A stretch of DNA of 64,000 nucleotides, taken from IMG/VR virus record IMGVR_UViG_3300012277_000001, positions 62,001 through 126,000 of that record; one strand, 5' to 3'. The number at the start of each line of letters is the position of its first letter. The stretch's first letter is position 1. Position numbers and translations under genes: made by a program. The stretch comes from an uncultured virus (IMG/VR IMGVR_UViG_3300012277_000001) (lineage: Duplodnaviria > Heunggongvirae > Uroviricota > Caudoviricetes). Shown piece by piece: positions 40,322 through 63,797 of the stretch. The notes beneath the pieces are model-generated. The model worked only from the letters and a program-made list of their open reading frames with translations. It was not told the DNA's origin and made no database searches.

Positions 40322-40561
40322 TTATTCCATCGGCTGAGATACGCGGTCAACGTCGCAGTAGAAAACCTTCGTACGGTCGAACAGGAAACCAAAGCCCATT
40401 TTGCGACCGCATTTAGGGCACATCGACGGGTCAACGTTGGTCAATGCAGAGGCCGTGGCCATTTCCTGCCCTGCGGATTGGGCAGCGGATGCGGTTGCCA
40501 GTTCGGCGGCTTTTGCTTTGCGCTGAATAACGATATCCAGCGGGTTAACGAATTCGGTCAT
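40322..40561 (-). CDS. small zinc-ribbon-like protein, 79 aa
   Basis: CPKCGRKM...FYCDVDR; GGGG SD. Confidence 0.7.
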   Translation of the reverse strand: MTEFVNPLDIVIQRKAKAAELATASAAQSAGQEMATASALTNVDPSMCPKCGRKMGFGFLFDRTKVFYCDVDRVSQPME

Positions 40562-54940: not shown

Positions 54941-55381
54941 TTACGCCTTGCCTGCTGCTTTCTTGGCTTTGCCTTGCAGTTTGATCGTACGCTCACGCGC
55001 TTTTTCCATTTCCTTTTTCGATTTGTCCATCAATTGAGTCAGATGGCGAACCGCTTCCTTATCGTCCCGCCCTTCCGCTTTCTTGAGCGCCATCTTGATC
55101 TTCACAAGTTTTTCCGTGTTCTGCTGCGCAAGTTTGGCCAGCAGCGATTTCGCTTTGGCTTTCCCTTCGCGGGTCATTACGCGGTTGTGCTTGGAATCTT
55201 TCACCTCTACCAATTTGTTACCGGCAGTACGGTGCGTGATGCGCCCAAGTTTACCCCAGCGACCGTAACCCATGGATTGCAAACCGAGCTTGCGTGCACG
55301 GGCCGCAACAGGGCTGATCTTGCCTTTCTTACCGCTGGTTTTGGTAGCTTTTTTGATACCTTTAGGTTTCTTGACGGCCAT
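54941..55381 (-). CDS. highly basic Lys-rich protein, 146 aa
   Basis: MAVKKPKGIKK...; GGAG SD; LGLQSMGYGRWGK core. Confidence 0.8.
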   Translation of the reverse strand: MAVKKPKGIKKATKTSGKKGKISPVAARARKLGLQSMGYGRWGKLGRITHRTAGNKLVEVKDSKHNRVMTREGKAKAKSLLAKLAQQNTEKLVKIKMALKKAEGRDDKEAVRHLTQLMDKSKKEMEKARERTIKLQGKAKKAAGKA

Positions 55382-55739
55382 ATGCGGCGTTCTCCAATTC
55401 ATCGGTGATGATGCGGAACAGCTTGAGGCTATCGGGCCGGTCCACGATGTAAAGTTTGCGCCGCAAAATTTCAGTGTGACGCTTTTGAATCACGTAGACT
55501 TCGATTTTCTGTTTGAAATCCACGTGAATGAAAAACTCGTTTTCATATTTGTACAGCTGGTAAGTGGCACGGTTGAACATGGTCCCGTTGAAGAAGAAAG
55601 CGCGTAGTTCGTACGGCACTTCCACCCGCATATAGTTGACGGTCCAGTCCGGCATGAAATCCTGAAGCATCTGCGCCAAATTGCTCATGGTGCTCAATTG
55701 CAGCGCATCGGGTTCTTGAAACTTCAGTTCAATTTCCAC
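55362..55739 (-). CDS. hypothetical protein, ~125 aa (start uncertain)
   Basis: GTG start (MEIELKFQEP) overlapping upstream stop. Confidence 0.65.
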   Translation of the reverse strand: MEIELKFQEPDALQLSTMSNLAQMLQDFMPDWTVNYMRVEVPYELRAFFFNGTMFNRATYQLYKYENEFFIHVDFKQKIEVYVIQKRHTEILRRKLYIVDRPDSLKLFRIITDELENAAYGRQET

Positions 55740-56286
55740 GATATTCAGTTCTCTTATCAGCAATTCGCTGATCGGACACGCGAATAGATTGACGCTTCTC
55801 CATGATTTGCTGGGTCAGCGCTTGGCGGCGAGCGGTCCACGTTTTCACCTTTGCGGGATCTTTCGGGCGCTTGCTGTTCAACTCGGCCAACCGCTTCTGC
55901 AATTTGCCTAGAGACTTGTTCTTTTTCTGTTTGAAATCTTGTGCCTTTTTCACATCACGGTGCAGAGCGTTGTCTGCCTTATGGCCCGCATGCTGCTGTT
56001 TTGAAGGTGGCGTAGATGCAACGGTCTGATAGTTGTTGGCCTCACGTGCACGGCGCGAACGTTCCAGACCTTTGCGCAGTTCGTTGCGGAACCAGTCTTC
56101 GGCAATTCCTTTTACACGCGGCTTAATCGCGGTATCCGGAACAGGATCAGTTTCTTCACGACCTTCGTGCAGTTGGTCAATGCGTTCAAAGAAATCACCA
56201 AAAGGATTGCCAAAAATCTCTTTGAAGTTCCGAGGCTTTACGGGCTTATCTTCACAAGCGAAGCCGTCAATTGTGATTTCGGTCAT
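55729..56286 (-). CDS. protein with acidic N-terminus and basic coiled-coil C-terminus, 185 aa
   Basis: ATGA overlap at 56286. Confidence 0.75.
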   Translation of the reverse strand: MTEITIDGFACEDKPVKPRNFKEIFGNPFGDFFERIDQLHEGREETDPVPDTAIKPRVKGIAEDWFRNELRKGLERSRRAREANNYQTVASTPPSKQQHAGHKADNALHRDVKKAQDFKQKKNKSLGKLQKRLAELNSKRPKDPAKVKTWTARRQALTQQIMEKRQSIRVSDQRIADKRTEYRGN

Positions 56287-56546
56287 CGCTGGCGCCCCCG
56301 TTCCCGACGTGAAAGCCAATTGGATTTCGACACGTGCATTTTGTCGATGTAGTCGTGCGGGAATGCCATGGCACCCTGCGCACTGGAACGGGTTTTATCA
56401 CGAAGCAACGTCTTTTTCTTTTGACGTGGCATCTTTTTGATCATTTTGTCGTCGTCTTCCCATTTCGTCAGGCGTTTGCCCGAGTGCTGTGGGTTCTCGA
56501 CGCCATCGGCCTGTTTGGCGCGGCCTTTAATTGTTAGTTTTGGCAT
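56283..56546 (-). CDS. small basic protein, 87 aa
   Basis: GAGGA SD. Confidence 0.75.
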   Translation of the reverse strand: MPKLTIKGRAKQADGVENPQHSGKRLTKWEDDDKMIKKMPRQKKKTLLRDKTRSSAQGAMAFPHDYIDKMHVSKSNWLSRRERGRQR

Positions 56547-56553
56547 GGTGTCC

Positions 56554-56775
56554 TCACGGGCAGCGAACCGTATCCTGAATGTCCATTTGCCGCTTCTCCG
56601 CGCCTTCCAAAGGCGTGTCGATCAGTCCGCTCTTCAGCCGAACTTTACGGCGTTTCTTTTTACCGGTGGCTTTGAGCGGTCGCCCATTTTTCACTTGGTC
56701 AAAACGTACATCAGGGATAGCGTCCCAGCGTTCGTCGGACCCAGCTTTGCCAGCCAAAGAAATCAGGAGTTCCAT
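56554..56775 (-). CDS. small basic leader-bearing protein, 73 aa
   Basis: TAATG coupling; starts MELLISLAG. Confidence 0.75.
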   Translation of the reverse strand: MELLISLAGKAGSDERWDAIPDVRFDQVKNGRPLKATGKKKRRKVRLKSGLIDTPLEGAEKRQMDIQDTVRCP

Positions 56776-57200
56776 TATTTGCCACTTCCGAAGTCAATGA
56801 AGTTCGGAGCGCGACGTGCAACCGACGACGCAATTGCGTAATCGGTGCCCCGCACTTTCATTACGCGAGATTCAAGGTTGAATGGTTCTACATCGTCCTC
56901 AAAAATCACGAATGCTTTTGCAGGGTTCGGAATATGCAGGAACTGGCCCATGGTCGGTATCGCATACACGAAGGTAACGCGCTGGTGATTGCGGTCCTCG
57001 ACCTGTACAACAACCGGCACATGATCTTTATCCATGTCGCGAACCTGTTTGATATCGGATTTCTTGCGATCTTCGAAATCAAAAACCTGTGGAAAAACGT
57101 TGGCAAACAAAGAGCTATACGACCGCTTGAGGATGGTGCGCACACCCTCCGCAATACGTGCGCTATTGTCCGTGGCAGCCAATGCAAGCATCAGTTCCAT
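56775..57200 (-). CDS. leader-bearing hypothetical protein, 141 aa
   Basis: GAGGA SD before ATG 57200; starts MELMLALAA. Confidence 0.8.
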   Translation of the reverse strand: MELMLALAATDNSARIAEGVRTILKRSYSSLFANVFPQVFDFEDRKKSDIKQVRDMDKDHVPVVVQVEDRNHQRVTFVYAIPTMGQFLHIPNPAKAFVIFEDDVEPFNLESRVMKVRGTDYAIASSVARRAPNFIDFGSGK

Positions 57201-57278
57201 TATAATTCCTCTACGACGCGTCCGTCCTATAATTGAGGCCGGATTTTTAGGCCCGGCGTATACAATCAAATTACCGTT

Positions 57279-60020
57279 TTAGTAACCGGCATCGTCTTTG
57301 TAACCTTCGTGTGCATCGGAAAAATCCTGATACTTTTCTTTCAGGTATTCCTGCTTCTCTTCGATATCGGACATGTGTTCTTGGATATCTTCCTCTGAAA
57401 TGTTTGGCGTCACATAACCAAAGCTGAAATCATCCGGATCGTGTTCGTCAGGATCGCCGAGGAACGTCACAATTTGCCGCATGGCCTGAAGACACTTGGC
57501 ACCCTGATCAACCAGTTTAATGTTGAGGCTTTCGACTTTTTCGCGTGCAGCTTCGCGAGCGTCTACATACGCCTCTTCGTAATCCGGATGGTCAGCATCC
57601 ATCGCAGGTTCGACCATGTTTTCGTTAATCCATTCGTCTTCTTCTAGGGTCGGCGGTGGATCAAGGTTGTCGGCCATATACTCCAATGAAGTAAGGATGG
57701 TTTCAACCGACGCCAGTTTCGCCAATTCCTTCAAGATCAAGCGGTGGTTCTGAATCAAAACTTCTTGCGGCAGTGTGTACAAAGATTCAGGTGCCGACGA
57801 CATGAGCAACGGCATATCGTTTGTCACGTCCACCGATTCTTCGCCGATGCGAATCTTGCTCAAACAACTGGCAAGATTATTAAATGCGCCATTGCGGTTG
57901 TTACGGCTGGTGCGCTGCGTGTAAATTTCCGCGAGCTTGGCGTTCGATACCTCTTCGATTTCGAACTTATTCGCCAAGCTTTTCGGGTGCGGCAACAGCT
58001 TGCAAGCGGCCTGCGCAACTTGCAGCACGAATTCGATATCCTGATTACCGGGTTCCAGTTTTGGACCATCGTAAGCCAACAACGTCGGCATAACCTGATT
58101 CAGGAACACATGCACTTCGGATTTGAAAAGCGTGGTTTCCGAATACAGGTGCATGAAACTCTTCATCGAGAATTTCACGAATTCCTTGAGGTGGTCGAGG
58201 GTCCAGCCACCACGCAGTTCTTGGCTGAATGCTTCAACCAAATCATCATCTTCCTCAAGCCACTTTCGGACCGCATCGAATGTGTGTTTGAATTGTTGGG
58301 CCTGATAAGGCTGGGTCACGACAATTTTCAAGATTTCCATCTTGATATCCGACATGAAACGCTGGGCCTTTCCGTCATTGATCGAATCAAATGCTTTGAA
58401 TGCTCGGCGCCCTGCCAGCATGTAGACAGCTTTTGCCGGTTGAATTGCGTACCAGTCATCGGCGCTGGTGTAGACCGCGTTATCCAGCAAATAACACAGA
58501 AGCAATTCAGGATGTTCGGTTTTTTCCAGCAACTCTACCAAGTGCGGCCCGCGTTCCTTTTTACCATCCTTGTCGATATGGTCGAGGATTTCGTAGGCTG
58601 CTTCCTGATAAACGTTCTTGCCCATCAAAGGCATGTAACGGGCGGCGCTGGCAATGGTGTGTAGCGTATCGCGCAGCTTTGGCATTTCGTCCAAAACTTC
58701 TTTGGACGGAACCGGGATTTTACCCGACAGAATTTCGTTAACGGCCCATGCCCCATCGAACACATGATCGTCTTCTGAAGGTTCTGCGATGAACGCCAGC
58801 TGCTTGAATGCGCTTACGTTTCCGGAGCGTGCAAATTTAATTGCGTTATCCGAACGCAGGTATTCGTGGTTAATGCCGTCGAGTCGATGCAGCGCCCCCG
58901 ATTTGCGCGCCACGTAACCGAGGCTAGCGCTCATGTCGCGGGTCAGTGCAGACGTTTGCATTTCGCTTTTGACAAATTCGCTGTCTTTGACCATTTCTAC
59001 AATGGCTTTCAGTTGCCCTTTCTTGAGTCCGTGCGCTTGTTCCAGATAGGACACGATGCCAATGGAGGCGCCGCGCCCCTCTTCGGAAATGCTACCCGGA
59101 GCATCCTTTTCTAGGGCTTCACCTTTGTGGACTTTCTCCATCAGCTGTCGTACGAATTCTTCGGCCTGCGTCAGGTCGTCCAATGCGTCTTCGAATGTGA
59201 TTTCGTTTGGATCGGATGGTGTGTGGTGTGCATGGCGGTCGCCCGAATCATCGTACAGTTTCGGATTCAAAGTGTACGCGCCAGCCTTCGCCTTTTCGTT
59301 CAGGCGGGCAATGAATTGCTTCAGCGTGCGATCAAAACCGGGAACAGGGTTGCCGTAAATGCGGGATTCGCGGCGATACAAAACGTCCTCTTCGCCGTCG
59401 TCACTCAGGAACGGTTTCACCAAGCAACGACACAGCGGTTTTTGAATGTTCAGGTCATTGGAACGGATGGCATAAACCACAAACGTTCCTTCGGCTACGT
59501 CTTCCGCCACGTGGCGGTTGTATTGGCCGGGATTCCCACGGTTTACAACACCGTCATCGAGGCGCATGCAGCTTTGGCGATCCCAATCACGGCCCGTGCT
59601 CATGCCGATGATATCGTACGGGTGACAGCTGATAACCATCTGCACCAAATCAGCAGAGCTATTCTGCAATTGTGGATCGTTGTCGAATGCCTGTTTCGCC
59701 AACGCATCTTTGGCGATCACCTTGCCGATGTTGTAAACGTTTTTCTGTTCCTTATCGTCGATCTTGACGCACTTTTTAGCCAGATAATCCGTGGCCATGT
59801 AGCCCGCTTTTTTCAAAGCATGACGCACAGCTGGCGGAATGGTGAAGCTGTGTTTCTGCGGCTTACCGATTGGAACATACAGGCGATAACCTTTCTTGCC
59901 CGGCCCATGAGGCATCATGGATTGCAAGGCCTTCACAGCCGGGGAATTGCGGTTCCAATTACGGCGGTATTTCAATGCCGTGCGCATCGACACGGCGGCA
60001 ACTGCCAATTCAAGTTTCAT
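57279..60020 (-). CDS. large leader-bearing protein, 913 aa, acidic C-terminus; paralogue of 60030-61958
   Basis: Starts MKLELAVAA; SCHPYDIIGMSTGRDWDRQSCMRLD. Confidence 0.85.
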   Translation of the reverse strand: MKLELAVAAVSMRTALKYRRNWNRNSPAVKALQSMMPHGPGKKGYRLYVPIGKPQKHSFTIPPAVRHALKKAGYMATDYLAKKCVKIDDKEQKNVYNIGKVIAKDALAKQAFDNDPQLQNSSADLVQMVISCHPYDIIGMSTGRDWDRQSCMRLDDGVVNRGNPGQYNRHVAEDVAEGTFVVYAIRSNDLNIQKPLCRCLVKPFLSDDGEEDVLYRRESRIYGNPVPGFDRTLKQFIARLNEKAKAGAYTLNPKLYDDSGDRHAHHTPSDPNEITFEDALDDLTQAEEFVRQLMEKVHKGEALEKDAPGSISEEGRGASIGIVSYLEQAHGLKKGQLKAIVEMVKDSEFVKSEMQTSALTRDMSASLGYVARKSGALHRLDGINHEYLRSDNAIKFARSGNVSAFKQLAFIAEPSEDDHVFDGAWAVNEILSGKIPVPSKEVLDEMPKLRDTLHTIASAARYMPLMGKNVYQEAAYEILDHIDKDGKKERGPHLVELLEKTEHPELLLCYLLDNAVYTSADDWYAIQPAKAVYMLAGRRAFKAFDSINDGKAQRFMSDIKMEILKIVVTQPYQAQQFKHTFDAVRKWLEEDDDLVEAFSQELRGGWTLDHLKEFVKFSMKSFMHLYSETTLFKSEVHVFLNQVMPTLLAYDGPKLEPGNQDIEFVLQVAQAACKLLPHPKSLANKFEIEEVSNAKLAEIYTQRTSRNNRNGAFNNLASCLSKIRIGEESVDVTNDMPLLMSSAPESLYTLPQEVLIQNHRLILKELAKLASVETILTSLEYMADNLDPPPTLEEDEWINENMVEPAMDADHPDYEEAYVDAREAAREKVESLNIKLVDQGAKCLQAMRQIVTFLGDPDEHDPDDFSFGYVTPNISEEDIQEHMSDIEEKQEYLKEKYQDFSDAHEGYKDDAGY

Positions 60021-60029
60021 GTTTTGTTC

Positions 60030-61958
60030 TCAGTGAAAGCCGTCGTTTTCGGGCGCCGGTTGGAATTCCAGATCGTCAAGGTCGCCCAGTTCATCCATGA
60101 GGGCGTCTAAATCTTTTTCATGCTGTTCGGCAGATTCGAGATAGTGCTTTGCCCAGTTCTCCAGCAGCGAAGGGTATGGACCCGGATTCTGCTTAGCAAT
60201 CTTGACCATGAGACTTTTCGTCCACGGGAAATCTCGCAAATACATGGAAGGGCCGAGGCCATTAGTCTGCGCATCTTGGCGAAGACGCAAACCAAGAACC
60301 GTGTTGAAATCCTGTGTGTTGACTTTCATCATGTTTTCGAAAACATGTTTATCGGTCAGTATCATGCGGTTGGCATCAACGACAATCGACATGTCGGCAG
60401 CTGGCCATGATTTGTCCACCGCGCAAAGCAGGGCGCGCCCATCCTCGGCACAGTAACGGTTGAACAAGACGGTATAACCCGCGTCTTGCAGGAAGTTGTA
60501 GATGCTTTCGTCGTAATAGAAATCGACTGGCATTTTCTTCGCAAGTTTCAACGAATTTTGCTGCACGTTGTGGTTATGGATGGTCTTCGACTGGTTCAGC
60601 ATCTTGCACAGCATACCGACCTGTTGACGCAACTGCACGGACCCTACGAATTTCGACTTCGCGAGTTCTGGTGTGAACTTGTACATGCCAGACAGGAACC
60701 CACGCCAAACAAGGCCCACATCACGTGCAGGAATTTCGTCGTTGATTACCGACAGCCAACGAGAATCAAACGGTGCTGCTTTGTTAATGCAGAACTGATA
60801 GTTGTCACCTTCGGTATCGTCATGCAGCGACCAATCGTACATTTCGCGTACGACACTTTGCAGCTTATTCGATTTCTTGACCAGTTCATCGCGCCACGCG
60901 AGAGGCGCCAGAACTTCGACCAGATCCAACAAAACGCCATCTTCCAAATGCTTGTCGATATAGGAACCAAATTGCCGTGCCGTAATCTGCTTGCGGTTCT
61001 CGCCATAAAGTGTGCTGATTTGGTAAGCGGCTTCGCCTTCGTCACCGTTGTAAATGTTGAGTGCATTTTCCATGAACACGCCGAGCCAGCGCTTGTCCTC
61101 CATCAGGAATTGACGCAGGCGAGGTTCATTGAGTTTCAGACTACGCAGCAAGTTGACTTTATCTTCGATTTCGTCGAATTTACCGACAATGTGATCGGTG
61201 CCCTGCCCATCGTTATACAGGCCGTCGATCAAGTGGTACATGCCGGAAACGGCCCCTGCGTTCACCTTGCGCAGCCAGCGAGAAAGTGTTTCCTCGAAAC
61301 CGGGAATCGGCGTGCCGTAGACTTTGGAACCAATGCGGAAAAGAATGTGCCCGTTTGGACCCACGAAAGGTTTGATCAGCAGGCGCGCATGAGGCTTGTT
61401 GATATTGGTATCTTTCGGCGAGATTGCGTAAGCAACCAACGTGCCTTCGGCGATATCGTTTTTGACGATGTGCTGGTTAATACCGCCCCGCGATTTGCCC
61501 GGCTGATCCAGACGCATACAGCTGGTTTGGTCCCAACGGCGCCCAGTGCTCATGGCCAGAACGTCGTACGGGTGGCACGAAACCACGCACGTGAAATCAT
61601 CTTTGTGTGCGGCGCGTTGCGGGTCGTTCATGAACTCTTTCAGAAGTTCGGCATCTTTCAGCAATTTGCCGATACGCATTTGGCGCTTACCTGTCGAGTC
61701 AACGGCGATACCTAGCACGTAATCGTCAACCGTATAACCCTTGCTGGTCAGGGCCATGGTGATCTTTTCCGGAACCGTGATTTTGGTCTTAACCGGCTTG
61801 ATCGGCATGTACAGGCGATAAGCGTTTTTCTTCCGCTTTTTGTTCTTTGGCAGGAAGCGCTGGATTACCTGCACACCCAGCCCGTTTTTGTTCCAGTTTT
61901 TCATCAAGGGCCGGGCCACACTCAAGGGCACAGCAGCCAGCGCCAATTGCATTTCCAT
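60030..61958 (-). CDS. large leader-bearing protein, 642 aa; paralogue of 57279-60020
   Basis: Starts MEMQLALAA; SCHPYDVLAMSTGRRWDQTSCMRLD. Confidence 0.85.
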   Translation of the reverse strand: MEMQLALAAVPLSVARPLMKNWNKNGLGVQVIQRFLPKNKKRKKNAYRLYMPIKPVKTKITVPEKITMALTSKGYTVDDYVLGIAVDSTGKRQMRIGKLLKDAELLKEFMNDPQRAAHKDDFTCVVSCHPYDVLAMSTGRRWDQTSCMRLDQPGKSRGGINQHIVKNDIAEGTLVAYAISPKDTNINKPHARLLIKPFVGPNGHILFRIGSKVYGTPIPGFEETLSRWLRKVNAGAVSGMYHLIDGLYNDGQGTDHIVGKFDEIEDKVNLLRSLKLNEPRLRQFLMEDKRWLGVFMENALNIYNGDEGEAAYQISTLYGENRKQITARQFGSYIDKHLEDGVLLDLVEVLAPLAWRDELVKKSNKLQSVVREMYDWSLHDDTEGDNYQFCINKAAPFDSRWLSVINDEIPARDVGLVWRGFLSGMYKFTPELAKSKFVGSVQLRQQVGMLCKMLNQSKTIHNHNVQQNSLKLAKKMPVDFYYDESIYNFLQDAGYTVLFNRYCAEDGRALLCAVDKSWPAADMSIVVDANRMILTDKHVFENMMKVNTQDFNTVLGLRLRQDAQTNGLGPSMYLRDFPWTKSLMVKIAKQNPGPYPSLLENWAKHYLESAEQHEKDLDALMDELGDLDDLEFQPAPENDGFH

Positions 61959-62485
61959 TATTTCAATAGCTCCAAAAAGAGTTTGATCAGCGGACCATTA
62001 CCTTTGCCCATCCACTCTACGGTGAATTGCTCCGCCAACCATTCGGTTTCGTTTTTCGCTGCATATTCGCTCGGATTTCCAAGCTTTTTGCGCAGGTCAC
62101 GAAGGGTCGATTTGTAGTGGCCCCACGCATCGTCGTCGTGTCCGCATTCGTGAGCGATTGTCGCGTGTATGCAATGTCCGTATTCGTGGACGATCAACGC
62201 GTCAAAGGCTTCGTGTGGGCCGTCGTGCACCACAAACCCCGGAGGATTAGCCTTGCCACATTCGCGCTGTGCATCGGCCACCGTGCCACGTGTAAACGCG
62301 GTTGTCAGACGAATCTTTCTGGTTTCCCGGTCGAATTCGGAGGTCAGCCGGTCGGTGTATTCCACACCTTTCAAAAACTTCGCAGCTTTCGGAAAAATTA
62401 AACCCAAAGATGCCAGCTTCTTCTTAACGTGCTTGGCAACTTCCGGCGATACGTCAGTTGAGGCCATCGCCAGCATCATTTCCAT
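61958..62485 (-). CDS. leader-bearing zincin-like metallopeptidase, 175 aa
   Basis: True start at TGATG overlap (MEMMLAMAS); IVHEYGHCIH and SEYAAKNETEWLAEQF. Confidence 0.8.
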   Translation of the reverse strand: MEMMLAMASTDVSPEVAKHVKKKLASLGLIFPKAAKFLKGVEYTDRLTSEFDRETRKIRLTTAFTRGTVADAQRECGKANPPGFVVHDGPHEAFDALIVHEYGHCIHATIAHECGHDDDAWGHYKSTLRDLRKKLGNPSEYAAKNETEWLAEQFTVEWMGKGNGPLIKLFLELLK

Positions 62486-62874
62486 CAGCTGAAATCCTTC
62501 GCAGGCTTGTAGACCATGAGCAAACTGCCCCATTCGTCTTTGAACAATTTCTTGGTTTCTTCCAACGAGGCCTTGAGATTCAACGCCGGGCGGAAACCGT
62601 TTTTGTAGAACACATGCAGCGAAGCGACACTGGATACCTGCGCCCCGATATCGCTTTTGTATTTCCGCACAATTCCCTTCAATAGGAAATCGCCGTGGCC
62701 TTGGCCTCGATGTTGTTCGTCGATCACGTAATCGGTAACGCTGTGTTTGCACGGCGAGAATTCCCCGCCAGTGCGCACGCAAATGTAACCAAACTCGGAA
62801 CGGAATTCCGTACCAAAATGCTCGCCCCGATCCGTGATTTTAATCGAGGCGGCCAGCGCCAATTGCATTTCCAT
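62485..62874 (-). CDS. leader-bearing GNAT acetyltransferase, 129 aa
   Basis: Starts MEMQLALAA; IDEQHRGQGHGDFLL motif A; FYKNGF motif B. Confidence 0.85.
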   Translation of the reverse strand: MEMQLALAASIKITDRGEHFGTEFRSEFGYICVRTGGEFSPCKHSVTDYVIDEQHRGQGHGDFLLKGIVRKYKSDIGAQVSSVASLHVFYKNGFRPALNLKASLEETKKLFKDEWGSLLMVYKPAKDFS

Positions 62875-62879
62875 TTCTT

Positions 62880-63797
62880 TTACTCCAAACCGTGCAGTTC
62901 GCGCTCTTCGCTAGTCATCCAACGCTTGCGCACATAATCCAAGAATCCTTTAGTGTCAACACGCAATTTACGTTTAACACGTTTGAGTTTCTCAAGGAAT
63001 TGCAAATCAGAACCCTCTCGGGCCGCATCTAACAGCCGGTTGAAGTCGCGCACAGCTTGGCTACCAACGTCCCACGTGTTTATCAGGTGTTTAATTTGGC
63101 GAGCAACACGGTCCCGATTTTTCTGCTCTTCCTTTGTGCGGGCGCCTTTCAGGTACTGTGTGTAGTGTGCTTCGCTGCCCTTGAAGACGATTTGTGACGC
63201 CACGTACCAAGCTTCCAACTCACCCGTACTGTAGGGCTGGAAAACCTTCTGCCCGAACTTACGTTTCTTTTTGTCCGAGACTTCCAGCTTGATTTTCTTG
63301 CGTTTATCGAGGTTCATAAACGCATTTATATCGGCGTACTGGAACAGTTCTATACCGTTCCTTTTTGCAAGCAATGCCAGCGTAAGTGAATCGTTGGATT
63401 TGAATTTACCACTCTCTTTCATAAAGTGGATTTCTTTCACGTACCGGATGCACGGGATGTACATTTTGTTTGAGAACAGTCGATCTTCTTTTTCGTCATT
63501 GTCCACATACTTTTGATCGGCCCAGTAATCAACGGCTTTGATCTTATAGTTCGCGTTCATCTTCTGCCCGTCGAGCACAAAGATAACGTGAGTACCACCA
63601 GCCTCATTCCTGAAGTAATCGGAATGCTTGGAGCGGGCAAGGCTCAGAAAATATTGAGCATCGCCGAATCCTGATTCAACGCCTTCGTTGGTGGCTGCCA
63701 ACTTGAACTTATCGTTCTTCAGCGCAGTAATTGCGTGCTCCATCAGGATCAAGTGATAGAGCACACTGGAACCGGCCAGCGCCAGCATCATTTCCAT
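62880..63797 (-). CDS. leader-bearing ADP-ribosyltransferase-fold candidate, 305 aa
   Basis: Starts MEMMLALAG; LYH, FLSLAR, IFVLD and EKEDR in the order expected for an ART core. Confidence 0.6.
   Translation of the reverse strand: MEMMLALAGSSVLYHLILMEHAITALKNDKFKLAATNEGVESGFGDAQYFLSLARSKHSDYFRNEAGGTHVIFVLDGQKMNANYKIKAVDYWADQKYVDNDEKEDRLFSNKMYIPCIRYVKEIHFMKESGKFKSNDSLTLALLAKRNGIELFQYADINAFMNLDKRKKIKLEVSDKKKRKFGQKVFQPYSTGELEAWYVASQIVFKGSEAHYTQYLKGARTKEEQKNRDRVARQIKHLINTWDVGSQAVRDFNRLLDAAREGSDLQFLEKLKRVKRKLRVDTKGFLDYVRKRWMTSEERELHGLE

Follow-up and report, generated by a model that had tools for sequence, protein, structure and literature searches.

Introduction

In phage T4, the internal proteins IPI, IPII and IPIII and the Alt propeptide carry a capsid targeting sequence (CTS), a short N-terminal peptide of about 10 residues that is found on unrelated proteins, is removed by the prohead protease gp21 and ends in a head protease site common to the scaffold and the capsid protein (PMC9026906, PMC5694885 and PMC9958956, in the parts available). 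Head (ejection) proteins of phiKZ and SPN3US carry propeptides that are cut by the prohead protease and for which a CTS-like role has been proposed; these propeptides are mostly longer than 100 residues and are cut after S/A/G-x-E (available sections of PMC5694885). Cleavage after Glu is described for the T4, phiKZ and SPN3US proteases alike (PMC5694885, PMC9026906, partial texts). The polyvalent injected proteins of Iyer et al. combine ART-PolyVal, GNAT and zincin domain types in one polyprotein (PMC7824862, available excerpt).

The DNA analysed here, referred to as the window, is a stretch of 64,000 bases corresponding to bases 62001-126000 of a 307,943-base jumbo phage genome that is Lu11/HRDY3-like and of Pseudomonas type. 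Its capsid protein is 95% identical to that of HRDY3, 85% to that of Lu11, 62% to that of PaBG and about 49% to that of Y3; the group related to Lu11, HRDY3, PaBG and Y3 has been named 'Lupandier' (PMC7412058, accessible part). A first-pass annotation of the window had proposed that a leader shared by consecutive genes is a lineage-specific head propeptide. The present analysis supports this in part, through the A-x-A end of the leader, its match to the scaffold, its letters in orthologues and the occurrence of cargo homologues in virions, and the leader, which comprises eight residues, is probably a capsid-loading propeptide for proteins packed in the virus head. In the literature, most subscription papers being out of reach, no description of this leader or of an Ala/Ser head protease site in the group was found.

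Leader-bearing genes in the window and in the genome

All seven N-termini were recovered at the minus-strand starts given by the first-pass annotation, and the proteins are 305, 129, 175, 642, 913, 141 and 73 aa long (Table 1). Two of the starts are hidden within longer TTG open reading frames, namely the one at 62485, which overlaps the stop of the upstream gene as TGATG, and the one at 57200, which is preceded by GAGGA. The leader pattern was limited to these genes among the gene calls of the window (7/70), and past residue 9 the sole real similarity among the seven proteins is that of the 642- and 913-aa pair (41.5% over 253 aa). The leader had been taken as nine residues long and is better read as eight, residue 9 being the first after the predicted cut. 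Residue 8, the position matching the Glu of T4, is Ala in all seven leaders.

Table 1. Leader-bearing genes of the window; the slash in each leader marks the predicted cut.
Feature	Position in window	Strand	Leader and family
305-aa cargo	62880..63797	-	MEMMLALA/G
129-aa GNAT acetyltransferase	62485..62874	-	MEMQLALA/A; PF00583
175-aa HExxH (zincin-like) protein	61958..62485	-	MEMMLAMA/S
642-aa cargo	60030..61958	-	MEMQLALA/A
913-aa paralogue of the 642-aa cargo	57279..60020	-	MKLELAVA/A
141-aa cargo	56775..57200	-	MELMLALA/A
73-aa basic cargo	56554..56775	-	MELLISLA/G

The run of seven is present as it had been described, but the array extends past the window edge (genome positions 126763, 128448, 130136, 130555 and 130895) and lone leader genes lie elsewhere (genome 186635, 239687, 244312 and 247478), the last of them directly upstream of the putative scaffold gene. 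Additionally, a NUDIX hydrolase at genome 61584 bears a longer variant of the leader. In the whole genome, 16 of 443 genes (our own gene calls) match a relaxed pattern written from this genome and Lu11, compared with 1.6 expected and a maximum of 6 in 200 shuffles.

The array sits downstream of AACTGTAAATA at genome position 137176 (-), in a gene run with gaps of at most 78 nt, and this element lies where a middle/late promoter is annotated in Lu11; since replication genes are also preceded by the same promoter motif, the timing of the array is indicated only loosely. The A-A/T-C-TGTAAATA motif, as in the annotated Lu11 promoter, was found at window 47376 (+) and 5557 (+) and at genome 137176 (-), and recurs upstream of many genes. 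The gene unit that holds the array also contains baseplate and tail-fibre-like genes.

Clustering and translational coupling with such short gaps would be in keeping with a leader that is a DNA or RNA element without protein function, such as a copied translation-start cassette or a recombination scar left by array expansion, and the same codon is chosen slightly more often than codon usage predicts (in 124 of 279 same-residue pairs versus 100 expected, with 124 reached in 19 of 401 simulations). However, Leu5 is encoded by four different codons, single leader genes are found over 100 kb away and the leader letters follow the scaffold letters as described below, so that such an element is highly improbable. 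The constraint on the leader is mainly at the protein level.

Two genes below the array, a gene at window 55729-56286 (-) starts with MTEITIDGFA/C and its Lu11 orthologue has a full leader, MKIMLAVA/C; it is possibly an eighth array member with a degenerate site. The same gene run is closed by small Lys/Arg-rich proteins without a clear leader at window 54941-55381 and 56283-56546 (-), which are possible DNA-condensing head proteins.

The leader in related phages

When the relaxed leader pattern was scanned for in relatives, as the first-pass annotation had advised, it was found in 13 genes of Lu11, 5 of PaBG, 9 of Y3 and 7 of NCTB (1.1-1.9 expected), with no excess in RSL1 (1/318) or Amme-1 (0/241) for this pattern, for which Lu11 and this genome had been the source. 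When built on this genome alone, a profile matched 10 of 379 Lu11 genes versus 0.64 expected, and elsewhere 2/324 in PaBG, 1/325 in Y3, 0/313 in NCTB, 1/318 in RSL1 and 0/241 in Amme-1. A first EM motif search was too loose and was discarded; a stricter one was clearly above its two shuffled runs only for this genome and Lu11, modestly above for Y3 and RSL1, and not above for PaBG, NCTB and Amme-1.

The leader had been expected to persist in orthologues. It does so with lineage-specific letters (MKIQLAVA in Lu11; MEMxLALA in HRDY3 and in this genome), but some orthologues have no leader at the called start, namely the Lu11 orthologue of the gene at genome 126763 and the PaBG NUDIX proteins. 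The Lu11 orthologue of the 141-aa cargo starts with MKIQLAIA and the HRDY3 orthologue of the 73-aa cargo with MEVLISLAG. Leaders of Y3 and NCTB end in S-x-S, those of this genome and Lu11 in A-x-A. Among the 120 homologues listed for the 642-aa protein, 78 fit the strict leader pattern and most of the others have longer leaders ending in G/A-x-A-A. RSL1 seems to use another leader: some ten genes close to its head module (L100-L106) have a separate common N-terminus of the approximate form I-x-A-A-V-x-R-L-x-A-T.

One cargo family with two types of leader

The 642-aa cargo consists of a conserved N-domain of about 245 aa and a helical tail, and the N-domain has 2,142 matches among 50% cluster representatives. 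In the best 150 of these 2,142 homologues, the residue aligned with Ala8 is Ala or Ser in 91 and Glu in 45, with 7 other residues and 7 unanchored cases, a few rows of the alignment being visibly out of register. The Glu-ending, T4-type leaders in the same register belong to T4-like phages. The starts read LALA/AVPLS here and VSLS/ALPPS in Yoloswag, and their counterparts are ...TLME/ALPLS in RsoM2USA ORF132 and ...DLIE/ALKPS in the Atu_ph07 homologue. The same swap between Ala/Ser- and Glu-ending leaders is also seen in the family of the 305-aa cargo, in SCTP-2, K566 and Slickus01. In the AlphaFold model of the 642-aa cargo, residues 1-8 have a pLDDT below 50 and the remainder is folded; the homologue register together with this disorder places the predicted cut between residues 8 and 9. 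Homologues of the N-domain also occur as tandem copies, as fusions to ART-PolyVal (PF18760) or with DUF4116 repeat tails (P0195, P0121, P0182, P0138).

These data bear on an export signal, Sec or other, that would be cut at A-x-A by the host signal peptidase I, of which A-x-A is the motif. The first-pass annotation had dismissed a Sec signal, and we agree: Glu2 is present in 6/7 leaders, there is no basic n-region, and the A-x-A already ends at residue 8, the leader having eight residues in total. Moreover, T4-like phages have Glu where this same cargo would be cut, and cargo proteins such as the topoisomerase IB and the ADP-ribosyltransferase work in the cytoplasm. Export is therefore scarcely credible.

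The leader end as a predicted head protease site

The head genes were located through PHROGs. Besides the capsid protein, the head module encodes a 655-aa acidic protein, a structural protein and a maturation protease that matches phrog_18299 (E 5.8e-94); genome searches with PF03420 (Peptidase_S77) and PF07068 gave no match here and none in the control genomes either. The 655-aa protein, labelled 'ATPase' in PHROGs, is read as the putative scaffold because of its position, its acidic run and the lack of its PaBG orthologue gp82 among 14 virion bands, which include gp80, gp81 and gp83. Both the 'ATPase' label and that of PaBG gp82 (L022:22918-24849), '60S ribosomal-like protein L2-A', are likely mis-annotations, and in the HRDY3 record the putative scaffold is split over two open reading frames (W02:C1:226749-228721).

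The first-pass annotation had advised looking for the A-x-A site in the capsid, scaffold and portal propeptides. A site profile was built only from 13 leader ends (residues 5-9) and is thus non-circular; it ranks the putative scaffold first of 424 proteins (11 sites versus 2.6 expected). The capsid protein ranks 10 of 424, and the portal and the maturation protease rank only 78 and 81. This profile replaced an earlier site count in the scaffold (8 versus 0.46), which was circular in that its pattern had been drafted with the scaffold already seen. Single sites are present in the N-regions of the capsid protein, the protease and the portal but do not reach significance by themselves (P 0.18, 0.09 and 0.14, respectively).

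In Y3, a profile from eight leader ends of that phage ranks the Y3 scaffold first of 312 proteins and the Y3 portal second. The crossed profiles fail: the leaders of this genome put the Y3 scaffold at 280 of 312, and those of Y3 put the scaffold of this genome at 420 of 424. As the Y3 proteome contains more Ala (8.45%) than Ser (6.88%), composition is no explanation for the reciprocal ranking. For a wider comparison, 80 IMG/VR capsid loci were reduced to 35 whose capsid protein is distinct and whose scaffold has at least 5 sites, and to 28 with a leader gene; five N-terminal prefixes were taken off by hand as false starts before counting. Over these 28 loci the P1 residues of leader and scaffold correlate with a rho of 0.72, with few independent switches in the tree and with L177, L156 and L138 as exceptions.

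The capsid protein carries IATA/S at residues 69-73, and the portion before this cut would amount to 18.3% of the mass. Phage G gp27 aligns to it from query residue 82, at gp27 residue 10, so that the first approximately 72 capsid residues look like a propeptide. The mass of the PaBG capsid protein drops by about 20% on maturation (PMC7412058, in the part available); a cut after A-V-A78 would remove 20.6%, a loose fit, as any cut at about 70-82 fits 20%.

Two further proteins are candidates from their sequences. A 79-aa protein at window 40322..40561 (-), a candidate head core protein, carries the predicted protease site at two internal positions, with S-x-S forms in its Y3 and NCTB orthologues, and its gene adjoins the portal gene in Y3. 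A 283-aa protein at genome 211344-212195 (+) (L015:9344-10195), a candidate second core protein, ranks second of 424 for protease-type sites and is kept in Lu11, PaBG, Y3 and NCTB.

Taken by itself, a match between leader end and protease site would also be obtained if the leader were only a protease site, serving as an activation or release peptide, and packaging went via DNA binding or folded domains. The site letters are the most conserved, homologues of the 913-aa type differ in how long the part upstream is and in its sequence, and several cargoes are basic, all of which would suit this reading. Against it, residues 2-4 are also common to unrelated cargo and switch jointly from one genome to another (MEMxL here, MKIQL in Lu11), and the 10-residue peptide of T4 has its targeting residues ahead of those for processing (PMC9026906, accessible text). 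A protease site and nothing more is accordingly considered unlikely. On the T4 model, it is very likely that the head protease cuts the leader after A-x-A, and the leader itself is likely, with slightly less assurance than its loading role as a whole, to target the cargo to the head.

Homologues in virions

RsoM2USA ORF132, a 76.6-kDa homologue of the 642-aa cargo (42% over residues 7-251), was identified by mass spectrometry as one of ten virion bands (PMC8504454, available part). The Atu_ph07 homologue is gp394, assigned by its mass of 55.10 kDa and the masses of its neighbours, and is listed with 18 peptides and 41% coverage among 131 proteins of PEG-purified virions (PMC6102473, Table S5 and accessible text). 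In PaBG, the gene immediately upstream of the scaffold encodes the virion protein gp83, whose leader-like start is longer and ends in AVAA. None of the five PaBG proteins that fit the strict leader pattern is among the 14 Coomassie-stained virion bands, a low-sensitivity list (PMC7412058, available portion). In the literature, no virion proteome or N-terminal sequence was found for this phage, Lu11 or HRDY3, and the accessible part of the Matilda preprint contained no virion proteome.

Virion mass spectrometry gives no location, and together with the baseplate and tail-fibre-like genes of the same unit this would also accommodate a leader that docks proteins on the neck, the tail, the capsid surface or a chaperone, in which case the cargo would not be ejected. 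The match of the leader site to the scaffold and the capsid propeptide, both cut inside the prohead, speaks against such docking sites, which are very unlikely. For a cargo loaded into the head, ejection into the host is somewhat favoured.

Cargo families and folds

Pfam gave a family signal for only two of the seven window cargoes. The 129-aa protein matches PF00583 at the cut-off (E 5.2e-4, 20.7 bits) and phrog_1249 (acetyltransferase) with E 0.036; the 175-aa HExxH protein matches PF07737 below the cut-off (E 1.5e-3) and is 36% identical to the N-part of a minor head protein of Bordetella phage CN2. The family of the 305-aa cargo has invariant H15, S52, R55, E102 and E104-D105-R106; the H, S and E-x-E among them resemble those of an ADP-ribosyltransferase, an assignment for which Pfam, PDB and hhalign gave no support.

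The N-domain shared by the 642- and 913-aa cargoes was modelled with a pLDDT of 93, and its fold may be weakly GNAT-like. Nearly all of the best 50 matches in the fold search of the 642-aa N-domain are acetyltransferases, with Z up to 6.1 (Hat1, rmsd 4.1, 108 aligned) and thus within the background, and the best Foldseek E-value is 0.07. The full-length 642-aa model matched nothing in the PDB at E 0.001 and, in BFVD, nothing but its own family; its best VIA Z was 7.7, on helical parts. In the ESM Atlas, the 642- and 305-aa cargoes fall in unnamed clusters only. The HRDY3 918-aa cargo (P0078) is named 'Portal protein' in UniRef, which is likely a mis-annotation.

Beyond the seven window genes, named cargo comprises an ART-PolyVal protein (PF18760, E 3.5e-21), a KMPT-N protein and a leader-bearing protein of the tyrosine-recombinase fold (topoisomerase IB), annotated as topoisomerase I in HRDY3 and Lu11. 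To call the GNAT, ART and HExxH cargo effectors is a fair guess, given similar domains in polyvalent proteins that are injected (PMC7824862, available excerpt).

Discussion

The data are best accommodated by the following sequence of events for a head-loading propeptide. The cargo genes would be expressed from a middle/late unit, and leader residues 2-5, hydrophobic and extended, would be the likely address, followed in residues 5-8 by the motif at which the phage's head maturation protease is predicted to cut, [AS]-x-[AS] and then a small residue. Through its leader, every folded cargo would be tied to the core of the scaffold, the shell would close, and the protease would then cut the scaffold, the capsid propeptide and the leaders, all at the same site. 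Once released, the cargo (GNAT, ADP-ribosyltransferase, topoisomerase IB, metallopeptidase-like and other proteins) would stay in the head and probably enter the host with the DNA.

If this is true, the leader would name, from sequence, probable head-carried proteins of a little-studied group (Lu11, PaBG, Y3, NCTB and JA phages) that are delivered before gene expression, making the leader-bearing set a place to seek counter-defence and host-takeover factors. The predictions are a head protease that cuts after Ala/Ser and not Glu, a precise cut site in capsid protein and cargo, and a portable eight-residue loading tag. A broader proposal is tentative and somewhat doubtful: that large phages share a modular code of an address and an own-protease site, swapped on mobile cargo between lineages, with a widespread injected acyltransferase and an Ala/Ser-specific protease. 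The code types would then be Glu in T4-like, Ala/Ser in Lu11/PaBG/Y3-like and a third type in RSL1-like phages, the 642-aa N-domain (more than 2,100 clusters at 50% identity) would be a divergent acyltransferase and, among injected phage enzymes not yet described, one of the most widespread, and the prohead protease of this lineage would be Ala/Ser-specific, unlike the Glu-specific T4 and phiKZ enzymes. In that case, the genome of a phage would be enough to read off its injected proteome and the specificity of its head protease.

Among known systems, herpesvirus assemblin, a maturation protease of clan SH, cuts the scaffold at V/L-x-A followed by S, a small residue after Ala. The predicted maturation cut after Ala before a small residue resembles this; for the head maturation protease itself, no solved relative and no sequence link to assemblin were found. 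The N-terminal 'motif' in the RaK2 paper is no precedent, as it refers to tail spikes. The ART-PolyVal, GNAT and zincin domain types of polyvalent proteins also occur here, and in one homologue the 642-aa N-domain is joined to PF18760, a polyvalent-type domain, but the domains are encoded by separate genes with their own leaders instead of one polyprotein. Compared with the long, Glu-ending propeptides of phiKZ and SPN3US, the leader has eight residues and ends in Ala. The closest likeness is to the T4 CTS, with which it has in common a short N-terminal peptide on unrelated proteins, an end that matches the predicted head protease site of scaffold and capsid protein, and an ADP-ribosyltransferase among the cargo. 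It is no member of the T4 CTS by sequence because the Glu site is lacking: the site here is [AS]-x-[AS] whereas that of T4 is I/L-x-E, and the leader has no sequence likeness to the CTS. Furthermore, about 16 cargo genes of up to 913 aa lie mostly in one array here, and phage G gp27 is a closer match to the capsid protein than any T4-like protein detected. By analogy, the leader may work like the T4 CTS, as a variant with a different site code.
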